Of a stretch of 30,932 bases of DNA, positions 22,395 to 27,534 are shown piece by piece. This stretch comes from a virus. Lineage: Duplodnaviria > Heunggongvirae > Uroviricota > Caudoviricetes. Position 1 is the stretch's first letter. Each line of letters starts with the position of its first letter. The stretch covers positions 1 through 30,932 of the IMG/VR virus record IMGVR_UViG_2541047956_000008, one strand, 5' to 3'. The translations under genes and the position numbers were made by a program. Below the pieces are notes generated by a model that saw only the letters and a list, made by a program, of their open reading frames with translations, had not been told where the DNA came from and did not search any database.

Positions 22395-22415
22395 GGTCGT
22401 TAATGATTTTACCCA

Positions 22416-22436
22416 CCCGCCGCTGGCGGGTTTTTT
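22416..22436 (+). terminator. Rho-independent terminator upstream of the major tail gene
   Basis: CCCGCC-GCT-GGCGGG followed by TTTTTT. Confidence 0.55.
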
Positions 22437-22453
22437 ATTTTCAGGAGACGAGT

Positions 22454-23158
22454 ATGTCCTCTAATTTTGAACGTTCTCAGCAGACCAAAGTCATGATCTC
22501 GTCTGCACCGGTAACGGCAGAAACGCTGAGTTCTGCCAGTTTTCTTGAACTGAGCTGTACGATTAAAGAGGTTCAGTTTACCGCCGGGCAGAAACAGGAT
22601 ATTGATGTCACTACGCTGTGTTCTACCGAGCAGGAGAATATCAACGGTCTTGGGGCTGCTTCAGAGATTTCCATGTCAGGAAACTTTTATCTCAACTCTG
22701 CCCAGAACGCGTTGCGTAGTGCTTATGACAACGACACCACATACGGTTTCAAAGTTATTTTCCCGTCAGGAAATGGATTTACTTTTATGGCAGAAGTTCG
22801 CCAGCATACCTGGTCTGTGGGAACCAACGGTGTTGTTGCTGCCACATTTTCCCTGCGCCTGAAAGGAAAGCCCTCTCTGACCACTGAACCTTTGAAACTC
22901 CTCTCTGATTTGAAAAGTACACTACAGGTTTCTGCCAGTGAAACGCTGAATATGTCTGTTGAGGCATCAGGTGGTGTGCCTCCTTATTCATATGTCTGGA
23001 AGAAAGGCAGCTCTCCAGTTTCCGGGCAGACATCGGCAACTTTCAACAAGGCCTCCGTGACATCCGGAGATGCCGGTGCGTATACCTGTGAGGTTTCTGA
23101 TTCAGCAAGCCCGATTAATAAGGTGACCTCCACTTCCTGCACCGTAACTGTCAGTTAA
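22454..23158 (+). CDS. Major tail protein with C-terminal Ig-like domain
   Basis: ATG 22454 with AGGAG RBS; C-terminal region (GGVPPYSYVWKKGSSPVSGQTSATFNKASVTSGDAGAYTCEVSD) looks like an Ig-like fold, as on lambda gpV-type tail tubes. Confidence 0.7.
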   Translation: MSSNFERSQQTKVMISSAPVTAETLSSASFLELSCTIKEVQFTAGQKQDIDVTTLCSTEQENINGLGAASEISMSGNFYLNSAQNALRSAYDNDTTYGFKVIFPSGNGFTFMAEVRQHTWSVGTNGVVAATFSLRLKGKPSLTTEPLKLLSDLKSTLQVSASETLNMSVEASGGVPPYSYVWKKGSSPVSGQTSATFNKASVTSGDAGAYTCEVSDSASPINKVTSTSCTVTVS

Positions 23159-23172
23159 GGAGGATGAAATCT

Positions 23173-23544
23173 ATGTCTAAAAATATCCGCAATCTGGCAC
23201 TGGCGACGATGTCTGGTTTTCGCCACAAAACAGTTGATGTTCCTGAGTGGGAAGGTACAACGGTTGTATTACGGGAACCCTCTGCAGAAGCCTGGTTACG
23301 TTGGCAGGAGATCGTTAAAACCGGAGATGATGATACACCGTTATCAGTTGCGGAGCGTGCCCGCCGAAATCTGGAAGCGGATGTTGAACTGTTCATCGAT
23401 GTTCTGTGTGATACCGGGATGCAACCCGTGTTTTCAGCGGATGATCGGGAGCAGGTACTTGCAGTATATGGTCCGGTACATGCGCGACTGCTTCGTCAGT
23501 CACTGGAACTGATCACTGATGCTGAAGTTATTAAAAAAAAGTAG
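23173..23544 (+). CDS. Tail assembly chaperone (lambda gpG-like)
   Basis: ATG 23173 (GGAGG 10 nt upstream); ORF ends ...ATT AAA AAA AAG TAG, inside a slippery A-run. Confidence 0.7.
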   Translation: MSKNIRNLALATMSGFRHKTVDVPEWEGTTVVLREPSAEAWLRWQEIVKTGDDDTPLSVAERARRNLEADVELFIDVLCDTGMQPVFSADDREQVLAVYGPVHARLLRQSLELITDAEVIKKK

Positions 23545-23846
23545 CACTTCCGGGTATTCGTTTTCTGATGATGCTGGCGCTCAGGATGGGGCGCACATTG
23601 TCAGAGTTACGCCGGGAAATGTCTGCATCGGAAATCATGATGTGGGCAGAATTTGACAGGATCAGCCCGCTGGGTGACGAGCGGGCTGATATCCGGGCTG
23701 CCCAGATAGTTTCTGCAGTTTACGGGGCGCAGGGTGTCAAAGTTCCACTGAATGAAGCGATTCTTCAGTGGGAGGTCGTTCCTGCAAATAATATTAAAGA
23801 TCCGTTCACAGCGTTTGAAAATGCATTATTTGCAGCGACACAATGA
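23538..23846 (+). CDS. gpT-like extension, expressed as a G-T fusion by -1 programmed frameshift
   Basis: The -1 frame is open from 23535 to 23846 with no RBS-bearing start; slippery heptamer A AAA AAG at 23535-23541 is the lambda G/GT type. Start coordinate is the first codon after the slip. Confidence 0.6.
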   Translation, partial: KVALPGIRFLMMLALRMGRTLSELRREMSASEIMMWAEFDRISPLGDERADIRAAQIVSAVYGAQGVKVPLNEAILQWEVVPANNIKDPFTAFENALFAATQ

Positions 23847-23904
23847 TCTTCTTACTTTACTGGATTATGATTCCGATTTTTATTAAGTAAATAAGGAGAT
23901 ATTG

Positions 23905-24246
23905 ATGGAAGTTATTCTTATTGCGCTAGTCCTGGGGTTAATTCCGGCTATTATCGCGCAAAGTAAAGGGCGTTCATTTTGGGGATGGTGGATATACGGA
24001 GCCTTACTCTTTATCGTTGCCTTGGTTCATTCACTTGTAATCCAAAAAGATGAAAAAACGCATGAGCAACAAATGGTGAGCAATGGCATGAAAAAATGCC
24101 CTTACTGTGCGGAGTTGATCAAAGAAGAAGCCATTAAGTGTAAGCATTGCGGTAGTGATTTAACACATAACCCTGATAGTACCGTTTCGCAAAAAACGGA
24201 TGATGAATATCTTGAAGAAGCAAGGCGTAAGGCTGGGCTTCTTTAA
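23905..24246 (+). CDS. Moron: small membrane protein with C-terminal zinc-ribbon (superinfection-exclusion candidate)
   Basis: ATG 23905 with AAGGAG RBS (6-nt spacer); two hydrophobic helices (VILIALVLGLIPAIIA, WGWWIYGALLFIVALVHSLVI) then CPYC...CKHC; AT-rich; own terminator. Confidence 0.55.
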   Translation: MEVILIALVLGLIPAIIAQSKGRSFWGWWIYGALLFIVALVHSLVIQKDEKTHEQQMVSNGMKKCPYCAELIKEEAIKCKHCGSDLTHNPDSTVSQKTDDEYLEEARRKAGLL

Positions 24247-24250
24247 AAGC

Positions 24251-24276
24251 AAAAACCGCTTCGGCGGTTTTTTTTT
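24251..24276 (+). terminator. Rho-independent terminator after the moron
   Basis: AAAAACCGC-TTCG-GCGGTTTTT followed by more T residues, 5 nt after the stop codon. Confidence 0.7.
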
Positions 24277-24291
24277 GCCTGGAGAACGAGA

Positions 24292-27200
24292 ATGGCGTCA
24301 CTACGCGAACTGATTATAAAAATCTCGGCAAATTCGCAGTCATTCCAGTCAGAAATTGCGCGAGCTTCACGTATGGGACAGGAGTACTACCGTACCATGC
24401 AGAACGGAGGTCGACAGTCTGCAGCTGCATCCCGTGATATGCGGCGAGCACTGGCAGAAGTGACCGAGCAGATAAATACGGCGAAGTCTTCGGCAATGAA
24501 TATGGCTGGCGCATTTGCCGGTGCTTTTGCCACTGGACATCTTATATCTCTTGCGGATGAATGGAGCTCAGTAAATGCCCGTTTGAAGCAGGCCACGCAG
24601 TCCAGCGATGATTTCCAGGCATCACAGCGCGAATTAATGGCGATCAGCCAGAGAACGGGTACTGCTTTTGCTGATAACGCCAGTCTTTTTGCACGTTCGG
24701 CTTCTTCCATGCGGGAATATGGTTACAGGTCTGAGGAAGTACTGAAAGTTACCGAGGCCATTTCTACAGGATTGAAATTGTCCGGAGCCAGTTCTGCGGA
24801 AGCCAGCTCGGTGATCACTCAGTTCAGCCAGGCACTGGCGCAAGGGGTTCTGCGCGGTGAAGAGTTTAATTCAGTAAATGAAAGCGGTGATCGTGTTATT
24901 CGTGCTCTGGCTGCAGGAATGGGGGTTGCCCGTAAAGATCTGAAGGCAATGGCGGATGATGGAAAGCTGACCGCCGATAAGGTTGTTCCTGCACTGATTA
25001 GCCAGCTTGGTACGCTGCGGGATGAATATGCAGCCATGCCTGATACCGTATCATCCTCTGCAACCAAAGTTGAAAACGCCTTTATGGCCTGGGTTGGTGG
25101 TGCGAATGATGCCAGCGGTGCAACGAAAACGCTTACCGGAATAATGAATGGTGTTGCGAATAATATTGATACGGTTGCCACGGCGGCGGGAGCTCTGGTT
25201 GCAATTGGTGTAGCCCGATATTTTGGCAATATGGCGTCTTCTGCGGGCTCTGCAACTGCCGGGTTAATCACTGTTGCCAGAAACGAAGTGGCTCTTGCTG
25301 AGGCACAGCTCAGAGGGACACAGATAGCAACAGCCAGAGCGCGGGCGGCATTGTATCGTGCGCAGCAGGCGGTTGTGGCTGCCCGTGGTACAGAAAAACA
25401 GGCTGCAGCAGAAGCGAAACTGGCAACCGCACAGGCTTCACTTACCCGTAATATTGCTGCCAGAACAGCGGCACAGGCAACGCTGAATAACGTTACGTCA
25501 GTTAGTAGTCGGTTGTTAAGCGGTGCTCTGGGGCTGGTTGGTGGTGTGCCTGGACTTGTCATGCTGGGGGCGGCGGCCTGGTACACAATGTATCAGAACC
25601 AGGAGCAGGCCAGAGAATCAGCGCGTCAGTATGCCGCAACAATCGACGAAATTCGCCAGAAAACGTCTGCAATGTCACTTCCTGAAGCGGCAGATAATGA
25701 AGAAAAGACGCGGCAGGCTCTGGAGGAGCAGAACAGGTTAATTGACGAGCAGAAAAGTAAGATTAAATCCTTACAGGAAAAAATTGCTGGCTATCAGTAT
25801 GTCCTGGCAAACCCGGGCTGGACAACCGATAACGGTTTTATGATTAACCACATGACGTCGGTGAAAACTGTCACAGAAGGGCTTGCAGAAGCAACAAGTC
25901 AGCTGGCTGTTGAGCAGTCCCGACTTTCCGGAATGCAGGAAAAAGCCCAGTCAATCCAGGATGTGCTTGCCGGGCTGGAAGAACGACGAGTGGTGCTGAT
26001 CCGCCAACAGGCAGCGGAACAAAACAAAGCATATCAGTCATTACTGATCATGAATGGCCAACATACCGAGTTTAATCGTCTTCTTGGGCTTGGTAATGAA
26101 TTACTTCAGCAGCGACAGGGGCTGGTGAATGTACCGTTACGGCTGCCACAGGCTGCTCTGGATGATAAACAGCAGAACGCGCTGAATAACACTGAGCGAG
26201 AGCTGACCTTATCCCGTATGAAGGGGGAAGCGCGTGAGCGTACTCGTCTGGGCTATGTAGCGGATGATCTCGGTTTTGTGGGGGATGCCTATCAGACGGC
26301 AAGGCAAACTTATATCAACAACGCGCTGGAAGCATGGCGTAACAACCAGGCGAATAAGCCAAAGGTACGTGGTGGAAAATCGGAAGCAGAAAAAACGGAA
26401 GATGCTTATAACAGACTGATTAAACAACAAAAAGAACAAATAGCACTGGCAGGACAGAATACTGAACTGGCTAAGATGAAATACCAGGTCAGCCAGGGCG
26501 AATTATCAACCTTATCAGAAGCGCAGAAACAAACCCTTTTACAGAATGCAGCACTCATCGACCAGAAAAAAATTCGTGAGCAAATTGCTGCTTATGAAAG
26601 CAGCCTGGCGGACAGTAACGCCAGTGTCAGGGCATCAAATGAGGCTCAGTTGTTAGGGTATGGAGACGGAACACGAATACGTGAGCGGCTTCAGGAAATG
26701 TGGAACATCCGACAGGAGTTTGAGCAGAAAAATAATGAGTTGCTGAGACAGTACCAGACCGGAGAAATCGAAGAAGCCCTGTGGAAACAGGAAAAAACGC
26801 TGAATGAAAAATATCTGGAGGAGCGTCTCAACGATCAGCAGGATTATTATGCAAAGGCCGATGCTTTACGCAGTAACTGGAATGCTGGGCTCAAAGAGGG
26901 GCTGACGAACTGGGCAGACAGTGCCACTGATTATGCTTCACAAGCGGCAGATGCGGTCGTTTCCACTATGGATGGTCTGGTTTCAAATATTTCCGAGGCA
27001 CTGGCCGGAAACGTTGTGGACTGGAGAAACTGGGGGAGTTCGATCCTTCAGGAAGTTTCAAAAATCCTGATGAACGCGGCCATTGTTAACGGGCTGAAAT
27101 CACTCTCCGGGACAATGTCGGGAGCGGGGGGATGGATTGGTAGTGTTGGCGACTGGCTTTCCGGTGCAGTAGCGAACGCAAAAGGCGGTGTTTACACATC

Positions 27201-27534
27201 GGCAAATCTGAGTGCTTACAGTAACACCATTGTGGATACGCCGACGTACTTTGCTTTTGCGAAAGGTGCCGGGCTGATGGGGGAAGCCGGACCTGAAGCT
27301 ATCATGCCGCTTACGCGGGCGGCGGACGGTTCTCTTGGGGTCAGGGCTATTGGCAATGTGAATGGTGGTGGCGGATTTGTCTATTCTCCCGTGTATCACA
27401 TCAATATTCAGAATAAAGGGAGCAATGGCGAGATTGATACGCAGTCAGCCAGGGGGCTGGTGGATCTGATCGACAGCAGGGTTGTGTCAATTATGCAGTC
27501 ATCACGTCGGGACGGAGGATTATGCAGTGCCTGA
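24292..27534 (+). CDS. Tail tape measure protein
   Basis: 1080-aa ORF, Ala/Gln-rich with long predicted coiled-coil stretches, directly after the G/T chaperone genes. Confidence 0.85.
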   Translation: MASLRELIIKISANSQSFQSEIARASRMGQEYYRTMQNGGRQSAAASRDMRRALAEVTEQINTAKSSAMNMAGAFAGAFATGHLISLADEWSSVNARLKQATQSSDDFQASQRELMAISQRTGTAFADNASLFARSASSMREYGYRSEEVLKVTEAISTGLKLSGASSAEASSVITQFSQALAQGVLRGEEFNSVNESGDRVIRALAAGMGVARKDLKAMADDGKLTADKVVPALISQLGTLRDEYAAMPDTVSSSATKVENAFMAWVGGANDASGATKTLTGIMNGVANNIDTVATAAGALVAIGVARYFGNMASSAGSATAGLITVARNEVALAEAQLRGTQIATARARAALYRAQQAVVAARGTEKQAAAEAKLATAQASLTRNIAARTAAQATLNNVTSVSSRLLSGALGLVGGVPGLVMLGAAAWYTMYQNQEQARESARQYAATIDEIRQKTSAMSLPEAADNEEKTRQALEEQNRLIDEQKSKIKSLQEKIAGYQYVLANPGWTTDNGFMINHMTSVKTVTEGLAEATSQLAVEQSRLSGMQEKAQSIQDVLAGLEERRVVLIRQQAAEQNKAYQSLLIMNGQHTEFNRLLGLGNELLQQRQGLVNVPLRLPQAALDDKQQNALNNTERELTLSRMKGEARERTRLGYVADDLGFVGDAYQTARQTYINNALEAWRNNQANKPKVRGGKSEAEKTEDAYNRLIKQQKEQIALAGQNTELAKMKYQVSQGELSTLSEAQKQTLLQNAALIDQKKIREQIAAYESSLADSNASVRASNEAQLLGYGDGTRIRERLQEMWNIRQEFEQKNNELLRQYQTGEIEEALWKQEKTLNEKYLEERLNDQQDYYAKADALRSNWNAGLKEGLTNWADSATDYASQAADAVVSTMDGLVSNISEALAGNVVDWRNWGSSILQEVSKILMNAAIVNGLKSLSGTMSGAGGWIGSVGDWLSGAVANAKGGVYTSANLSAYSNTIVDTPTYFAFAKGAGLMGEAGPEAIMPLTRAADGSLGVRAIGNVNGGGGFVYSPVYHINIQNKGSNGEIDTQSARGLVDLIDSRVVSIMQSSRRDGGLCSA

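Follow-up and report, generated by a model that had tools for sequence, protein, structure and literature searches.

A membrane zinc-ribbon gene in the HK97 gp15 slot of an Escherichia coli prophage, with a possible role in superinfection exclusion

The cargo gene and its slot

We analysed a 30,932-nucleotide (nt) stretch of Caudoviricetes DNA (IMG/VR record IMGVR_UViG_2541047956_000008, positions 1 to 30,932; hereafter the window) and focused on a small gene, here called the cargo gene, that is located between the tail gene T and the gene of the tape measure protein (TMP). It encodes a 113-amino-acid (aa) protein with two predicted transmembrane (TM) helices and a predicted zinc ribbon. In phage HK97 the gp15 gene occupies exactly this T/TMP slot, as an initial annotation of the window had noted, and gp15 is reported to be a prophage-expressed inner-membrane superinfection-exclusion protein whose block of genome entry depends on the tail of the incoming phage (PMC3594210). 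An exclusion or defence function for the 113-aa protein is proposed here on position, architecture and analogy: the slot of gp15 is filled, and its role is probably filled as well, by an unrelated protein of a large, uncharacterised family. The features of the cargo region are as follows.

23815-23844, + strand: TTGAAA-N18-CACAAT within the 3' end of T, an alternative promoter-like match and the sole + strand hit of a consensus scan
23843-23871, + strand: candidate sigma-70 promoter found by alignment (-35-like ATGATC at 23843-23848, N17, -10-like TATGAT at 23866-23871)
23893-23898, + strand: ribosome-binding site AAGGAG found by sequence inspection, 6 nt 5' of the cargo ATG
23905-24246, + strand: cargo gene (113-aa protein, two predicted TM helices and zinc ribbon), identified by its open reading frame (ORF), a PHROG 8436 match and RefSeq WP_021543566.1
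24251-24276, + strand: intrinsic-terminator-like hairpin and T-run, found by a terminator scan

The ORF runs from an ATG at 23905 to a TAA stop at 24244-24246, so that both the 113-aa reading frame and the ribosome-binding site of the initial annotation were recovered. Phage Evi and eight other E. coli phages, phi467 included, matched both flanks at ~88% and lacked an insert of ~405 bp. In the comparison with Evi, the sequences diverged from about column 276 (~23775), still within the 3' end of T, and matched again at the hairpin. The left junction of the insert was accordingly placed at ~23775, and the last ~24 codons of T diverge from those of cargo-less relatives. The unit had been drawn at 23850-24280; the position of the gene within these limits stands, and the left edge moves into T.

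Slot contents were surveyed in 80 related IMG/VR loci retrieved with the TMP N-terminus; the T gene was not found in five of them, so 75 were scorable. The slot was empty in 37 loci (gaps of 9-47 bp), 17 loci carried a gp15-like gene, six a member of the zinc-ribbon family and 15 other cargo, most of it coding for lipobox-containing lipoproteins or for small proteins that are secreted. Because gp15-like, zinc-ribbon, lipoprotein and secreted cargo all occur across the surveyed loci, the T/TMP slot is a hot spot for genes of envelope proteins, and since about half of the related tail modules have an empty slot, the cargo is dispensable for the tail. The lipoprotein and secreted morons resemble the cargo gene in insertion site, orientation and an envelope-targeted product. 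They differ in being unrelated proteins with a signal peptide or lipobox in place of a membrane hairpin and a ribbon. The other cargo was made up of several unrelated families, with lipoboxes such as FISACK or LAGCK, and two loci carried an extra ORF of 185-190 aa.

The GC content was 0.259 in the intergenic region between T and the ORF, 0.415 in the ORF, 0.394 in the insert and 0.509 in the whole window, and GC content at third codon positions was 0.377 in the cargo ORF versus 0.479 in the TMP gene. The insert region (23847-24291) was 100% identical to a dusA-integrated prophage of E. coli strain 1517k, in which the gene order from G to TMP is unchanged and the cargo is annotated as a "zinc ribbon domain-containing protein" (WP_021543566.1). 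The host element is an E. coli HK97-like prophage integrated at dusA. Among 5,426 complete E. coli genomes 43 carried the cargo gene, 27 of them at >=99% and 16 at 80-90% identity. Compared with the 85%-identical alleles, the ratio of nonsynonymous to synonymous substitution rates (dN/dS) of the cargo gene was ~0.08, and in distant comparisons its dN was 0.19-0.27, below that of G, T and TMP; the exception was the comparison with Salmonella phage FSL SP-016, where the dN of TMP was slightly under that of the cargo. On account of this low dN/dS and the low dN in distant comparisons, the cargo ORF is a real gene under strong purifying selection and not a chance reading frame. Synonymous divergence (dS) from the E. 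coli alleles of 85% identity was ~0.9 in the cargo gene and 0.3-0.6 in the flanks, which suggests different recombination histories for cargo and flanks.

Upstream of the gene, a footprint GTGACA-N17-TAGGAT was kept in an alignment of 61 distinct upstream sequences, and the version in the window aligns to it. Conservation over the 61 sequences was 0.85-1.0 in the -10 columns and 0.33-0.9 in the spacer, with 0.33-0.64 in mid-spacer. The -35-like ATGATC of the window overlaps the T stop codon; the -35 core TGA was conserved at 0.98-1.0 and was retained even in sequences with the T stop codon elsewhere. Spacing was 17 nt in 52 of the 61 sequences, and in 38 the -10 element ended 31-32 nt 5' of the ATG. 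The GG core of the ribosome-binding site was conserved at 0.93-1.0 in relatives. A promoter consensus scan yielded sites no more frequently than in shuffled sequence, and the hexamers of the alternative match, TTGAAA and CACAAT, showed no conservation in relatives. A promoter called by consensus score alone was rejected, the score being within the shuffled range; the candidate promoter is supported by the phylogenetic conservation of its footprint. The promoter-like hexamers of the initial annotation thus fail by score and gain support from conservation across relatives. The conserved upstream element supports, without proving, that the cargo may be transcribed independently.

Downstream, the hairpin (AAAAACCGC-TTCG-GCGGTTTTT, 24251-24272) has a CCGC/GCGG stem, a TTCG loop and flanks of A5 and T9, the nine-T run ending at 24276, and sits just 5' of the TMP ribosome-binding site. 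A hairpin with T-run was found 3' of the cargo gene in 41 of 42 distinct downstream sequences, and the stems differed (CCGC/GCGG, CCCCGC/GCGGGG, CCTCAC/GTGAGG and GCCCCGC/GCGGGGC), a pattern of compensatory conservation. In cargo-less Evi, and in most of the other empty slots, T is directly followed by this hairpin and T-run or by an equivalent. The hairpin is therefore a property of the slot that persists without cargo, and a terminator as part of the cargo was rejected. Many HK97-like tail modules have a hairpin and T-run directly 5' of the TMP gene; it was absent in a few with gaps of 9-22 bp. A terminator kept between T and TMP of a late operon could be the relic of a lost cargo or could tune the amount of TMP.

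Taken as a moron, as first proposed, the cargo gene agrees with its presence or absence between similar tail modules, its distinct composition, its conserved upstream promoter-like element and a following hairpin with compensatory stems. The further description of a self-contained unit with a perfect terminator holds in part: the composition is distinct, a promoter-like element is conserved upstream and the hairpin and T-run are present, and the terminator is a property of the slot.

A membrane hairpin and zinc-ribbon family

In the AlphaFold2 model of the 113-aa protein (predicted local distance difference test score 77.8), two helices (residues 2-21 and 25-59) precede a ribbon (62-85), from which a disordered linker leads to a last helix (99-109). 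The coding positions of these parts are given below.

23911-24042, + strand: transmembrane helical hairpin from model and hydropathy (TM1 ~3-19, basic loop SKGRSF 20-25, TM2 ~26-46)
24088-24162, + strand: Cys4 zinc ribbon, residues 62-86 (KCPYCAELIKEEAIKCKHCG), from Pfam Zn_ribbon_3
24199-24231, + strand: short C-terminal helix, residues 99-109, in the tail motif KTDDEYLEEARRKAGLL, from AlphaFold2 and alignment

Hydropathy of the TM segments was 2.1-2.3. Residues 62-86 scored 34.6 bits against Pfam Zn_ribbon_3 (PF13248; gathering cut-off 27 bits), and with the two CxxC knuckles CPYC (65-68) and CKHC (79-82) this segment is a predicted Cys4 zinc ribbon; C65, C68, C79 and C82 were invariant in 103 family representatives. 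The order of two TM helices and a CPYC...CKHC zinc ribbon, noticed initially, is therefore recovered by the structural model, hydropathy and Zn_ribbon_3. Foldseek matched the model to zinc ribbons of ~25 residues at about 1 Å root-mean-square deviation, and Foldseek searches of PDB and BFVD and sequence searches of PDB returned nothing more specific than generic zinc ribbons (RanBP2/NZF type, bL32) and unnamed "zinc-ribbon" proteins from viromes. The tail motif KTDDEYLEEARRKAGLL is common to most aligned 109-115-aa homologues of HK97-like slots, and PHROGs 19323 and 5031 gave weak matches to the tail only.

The region of the SKGRSF loop contained a mean of 2.35 lysine or arginine residues over the 103 representatives, and the three-residue N-terminus is acidic. 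By the positive-inside rule, this charge distribution predicts a cytoplasmic loop and a periplasmic ribbon. This periplasmic location is a prediction for which fusion proteins give conflicting hints: signal-peptide-like N-terminal domains in P0204 and P0258 point to a ribbon on the outside, and P0190, P0228 and P0253 point to the opposite. A ribbon in the periplasm would be favourably positioned to encounter the tail of an incoming phage.

A full-length match (E 3.2e-51, residues 1-111 on profile positions 1-108 of 110) assigned the protein to PHROG 8436, which has no assigned function, and it is identical to the RefSeq "zinc ribbon domain-containing protein" WP_021543566.1. Pfam covers just the 25-residue ribbon and not the hairpin and ribbon core as a unit. 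This core comprises residues 1-86, with G11, P14, A18, K21, G22, F25, W28, W29, Y31, G32, A39, H42, C65, C68, A69, E70, A76, C79 and C82 invariant. Four forms of C-terminus follow it: the short KTDEEYLEEARKKAGLL tail of the 113-aa protein, a soluble domain of ~90 aa (in proteins of 169-191 aa), a third membrane helix, or nothing beyond the ribbon.

A family profile was searched against 1.84 billion representative proteins and matched 26,047 of them at E<=1e-3, many of which will be ribbon-only; stricter thresholds of E<=1e-10 and E<=1e-30 left 3,950 and 311 matches. Members from Bacillota, Chloroflexota, Acidobacteriota, Planctomycetota and other distant phyla had a core that was 40-58% identical, and all ten large neighbouring genes tested there were ordinary chromosomal genes (e.g. 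P-type ATPase, chemoreceptor, ThrRS, PpiD); a Pantoea member was also chromosomal. The family is very large and mostly chromosomal outside Enterobacterales. Pfam domains fused to its members were mostly additional ribbons, with single cases of YARHG, TPR, HEAT, HIRAN and GYF_2. Searches of the PADLOC-DB defence models gave only weak ribbon-level matches (HEase 5e-5 and LmuB 3e-3, both at residues 46-105), and an NCBIfam search only ribbon-level noise such as TcaA. Membership in a known defence system was rejected, as these matches were confined to ribbon-level noise.

Phage-borne members were found repeatedly beside tape measure genes. The order G-T-gene-TMP was seen in 80/80 close IMG/VR relatives (66-100% identity), even with a TMP only 37% identical, and in prophages of Cronobacter, Enterobacter and Salmonella. 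Across nine phage lineages examined, family members were located directly upstream of the TMP gene in seven. A metagenomic contig and an E. coli contig carried one directly 5' of an unrelated TMP gene of the TMP_2/TMP_4 type, Klebsiella phages ST846-OXA48phi9.2, ST405-OXA48phi1.3 and ST11-VIM1phi8.2 directly 5' of a TMP_2-type gene, and Pseudomonas phages vB_PaeS-D14Q and YMC11/02/R656 (two lineages) directly 5' of an unrelated TMP gene. Microcystis phage Mae-JY04 has its homologue in the gap from a T-like gene (PHROG 337) to the TMP gene; this homologue runs on the opposite strand and must therefore be transcribed independently. The exceptions to TMP adjacency were Klebsiella KP12/ST15-VIM1phi2.1 and Marinomonas P12026.

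Other arrangements were observed as well. In Mae-JY04 a second small gene (PHROG 914) accompanies the homologue, also on the strand opposite to the tail operon. Serratia carries 178-191-aa forms at a second site of the tail operon, between K-like (NlpC/P60) and I-like genes and upstream of J, and ORF sizes in Edwardsiella and Xenorhabdus suggest the same K-like/I-like site for longer forms. In a widespread Cronobacter locus the cargo gene is intact and the TMP gene is disrupted and fused to Y-family polymerase fragments (IMS, IMS_C, DUF4113), showing that the cargo gene persists in a decayed prophage.

Relation to known entry blockers and possible function

To our knowledge, few inner-membrane blockers of phage genome entry are understood, among them T4 Imm, HK97 gp15 and P22 SieA. 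Recent work has made the tape measure protein central to the genome-entry step. The cargo gene resembles that of gp15 in its slot, which is flanked by T and the TMP gene in an HK97-type module and followed by a hairpin, in its AT-rich composition, in a similar ribosome-binding region (TTAAGTAAA..GGAG..ATGGAA) and in encoding a small membrane protein, gp15 being located in the inner membrane. The parent families of both also have chromosomal, non-phage members; gp15 derives from the chromosomal YebO family (PMC3594210). The proteins themselves differ. gp15 has 62 aa, belongs to Pfam YebO and is without a zinc ribbon, whereas the cargo protein has 113 aa, a predicted Cys4 ribbon and a C-terminal helix; the function of gp15 was shown experimentally, whereas that of the 113-aa protein is proposed by analogy. 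YebO (PF13974) did not match the 113-aa protein at E<=1 and matched gp15 itself at 1e-8. Homology to gp15 or YebO was rejected on this result and on BLASTP, and the earlier claim that the protein is distinct from gp15 agrees with the comparison, which showed no relationship to either.

A second comparison concerned T4 Imm, which is reported to bind the T4 TMP and block genome translocation (bioRxiv 10.64898/2026.03.06.709160, preprint). The slot protein of Pseudomonas YMC11/02/R656 (gp065) contains Imm_superinfect (PF14373) at residues 20-60 (E 2e-18) followed by a CPYCAE...CxxCG ribbon, and it aligned with the 113-aa protein over residues 4-91 (E 3e-14). As a positive control, T4 Imm matched PF14373 at 7e-16. 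The architecture of Imm_superinfect and ribbon is itself widespread. Imm_superinfect proteins and the 113-aa protein have in common a two-helix membrane hairpin whose first helix ends in an (I/L)PAxIA motif and whose loop is basic; the Imm_superinfect fusions also share with the 113-aa protein the CP(Y/F)CAE..I...A.KC..CG ribbon after the hairpin, and the Pseudomonas fusion occupies the same slot, with tail chaperone genes on one side and the TMP gene on the other. The 113-aa protein differs in failing PF14373 and in a loop ~10 residues shorter, and T4 Imm differs in having no ribbon. Membership in Imm_superinfect was rejected by a hidden Markov model test of the 113-aa protein and the 103 representatives. 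Homology of the hairpins may exist, and we treat it as a lead rather than a result.

We hypothesize that the 113-aa protein is a prophage-expressed inner-membrane blocker of genome injection that acts by interference with the incoming TMP, a reading that we favour tentatively and put slightly short of an even chance. The cargo gene would be transcribed in the lysogen from its own sigma-70 promoter, and the lysogen transcript would end at the hairpin without reaching the TMP gene; late transcription, once modified by the phage's antiterminator, would read through the hairpin. The protein would reside in the inner membrane and block genome entry of superinfecting siphophages after adsorption, by interfering at that membrane with the incoming TMP as it inserts or forms a channel. 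Hairpin and ribbon core would form a general module, with the variable C-terminus as the likeliest determinant of specificity. The hypothesis draws on the slot shared with the proven exclusion gene gp15 and on the recurrent position by TMP genes in 7/9 lineages, unrelated tape measures included. It draws further on the Pseudomonas slot protein, which joins Imm_superinfect to the same ribbon, T4 Imm being reported to bind its TMP directly, and on a slot that is a cargo hot spot, with conserved regulatory elements and a strongly constrained gene.

Several results weigh against it. BLASTP of the 113-aa protein against gp15 gave E 5, i.e. no similarity, and Imm_superinfect matched neither the 113-aa protein at E<=1 nor any of the family representatives (0/103). 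A profile-profile comparison restricted to the N-terminal hairpins gave a weak match (probability 42.6%, P 2.5e-4, 21 columns covering TM1 and loop; P ~0.25 in reversed-sequence controls), and the comparison with T4 Imm alone a probability of 3%. The predicted periplasmic placement is unusual for a Cys4 zinc ribbon. Conservation of the core and the chromosomal context in distant phyla suggest a general cellular rather than a TMP-specific activity. The slot accepts unrelated cargo, and the location of a gene there may thus indicate no more than a site permissive for insertion; promoter consensus sites were at the shuffled level. Literature searches for the protein by accession, by PHROG, or by zinc ribbon, tape measure and superinfection found nothing.

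An alternative that we regard as unlikely is that the prophage captured a widespread cellular membrane zinc-ribbon protein, with for example a stress or envelope function, which benefits the lysogen as a host-envelope or fitness factor from a merely permissive slot. The size of the family (26,047 and 3,950 matches at E<=1e-3 and E<=1e-10), the ordinary chromosomal neighbours in distant phyla, the chromosomal Pantoea member, a core that is highly conserved whatever the context and the many unrelated cargo genes in the slot all fit such a capture. Against it stand the phage-borne members beside TMP genes in 7/9 lineages, in unrelated tail modules and phyla, an adjacency far above that of a random position among roughly 50 genes, and an exclusion protein as the only characterised cargo of the slot. 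Less likely again is a function in the phage's own cycle, in which a late tail-operon product would shield the inner membrane from the phage's own pore-forming TMP, as in colicin immunity, or would tune tail assembly, lysis or injection. In its favour are the late-operon orientation immediately 5' of the TMP gene, by which late transcripts that read through would include the cargo, the hydrophobic segments of TMP, and a conservation of the cargo that equals or exceeds that of G, T and TMP in every comparison except one. Against it are the 37 empty slots and 32 slots with unrelated cargo among the 75 scorable ones, together with isolated phages of the Evi type that lack the gene: the cargo is not needed for assembly. 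The opposite strand in Mae-JY04 and the gene's own conserved promoter-like element also count against it.

We consider it improbable, and the least probable of these alternatives, that the protein defends by another route than a block of entry, namely by sensing injection (TMP or incoming DNA at the ribbon) and then depolarising or killing the cell in an abortive infection, or recruiting a further factor. Zinc ribbons often bind nucleic acids or proteins, and the invariant non-cysteine ribbon residues A69, E70 and A76 suggest a binding surface. Membrane-anchored defences that engage TMPs do exist, such as SNIPE, a membrane nuclease that engages TMPs during injection (PMC13190303). Against sensing of this kind, the 113-aa protein has no effector domain, the slot holds no conserved partner gene, the PADLOC matches were spurious and at ribbon level only, and a two-helix hairpin of 113 aa is small for a sensor-effector.

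The block of genome injection may also be framed more widely. Hairpin and Cys4 ribbon core could be a cross-phyla injection-blocking family, recruited repeatedly upstream of TMP genes and sister to the hairpin of the T4 Imm type, with a ribbon outside the cytoplasm contacting the incoming TMP or tail tip. We regard this extension as doubtful; the argument for the sister relationship is that fusions of Imm_superinfect and ribbon occupy the same slot. If true, it would represent an unusual periplasmic use of the zinc-ribbon fold, and the chromosomal homologues would form a large unrecognised reservoir of entry-blocking immunity genes.

Should phage exclusion prove to be the function, thousands of "zinc ribbon domain-containing" proteins would acquire one, siphophage DNA entry in E. 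coli could be studied with a second tractable probe, and prophage-mediated resistance relevant to phage therapy would become easier to explain (43/5,426 complete E. coli genomes). If there is no exclusion, the strong conservation and recurrent position still call for an explanation. The family, visible to Pfam only as a 25-residue ribbon, has phage-borne members that cluster by TMP genes in Enterobacterales, Pseudomonas and a cyanophage.

The surrounding tail module and other parts of the prophage

The neighbouring genes form a textbook lambdoid or HK97-type tail module, with the following features.

22403-23158: major tail protein gene with a C-terminal Ig domain (Pfam Ig_2/Ig_3, residues ~173-250)
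23164-23544, + strand: tail assembly chaperone gene G (Pfam Phage_TAC_1, E 3e-57)
23533-23541, + strand: G/T slippery A-run (A AAA AAA AG) for a -1 frameshift into T, the -1 frame being open from 23535 into T
23568-23846, + strand: tail gene T (Pfam Phage_tail_T, E 2e-17)
24292-27534, + strand: TMP gene, 1,080 aa (Pfam TMP_3, Phage_HK97_TLTM, Tape_meas_lam_C)

These Pfam matches of G, T and TMP confirmed the placement of the cargo gene between the tail chaperone and tape measure genes. PHROG 14766 spans G and T as a single fused product. The TMP of the window was 55% identical to that of HK97 and contained hydrophobic segments at residues 294-312 and 408-426.

At the far end of the same prophage in strain 1517k, the closest complete genome, a Panacea-domain protein and small downstream ORFs, possibly a toxin-antitoxin module, were found beside a dusA remnant. 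This module may lie outside the window, where the ORF layout of the left end differed from the offset predicted via 1517k. The major tail protein also matched PHROGs of Hoc-like decoration proteins. A second strong terminator-like hairpin of the window (ACCCGCCGCTGGCGGGT) with a T-rich run is located at 22415-22441, between the end of the tail-completion gene (22394) and the point at which RefSeq starts the major tail gene (~22454).

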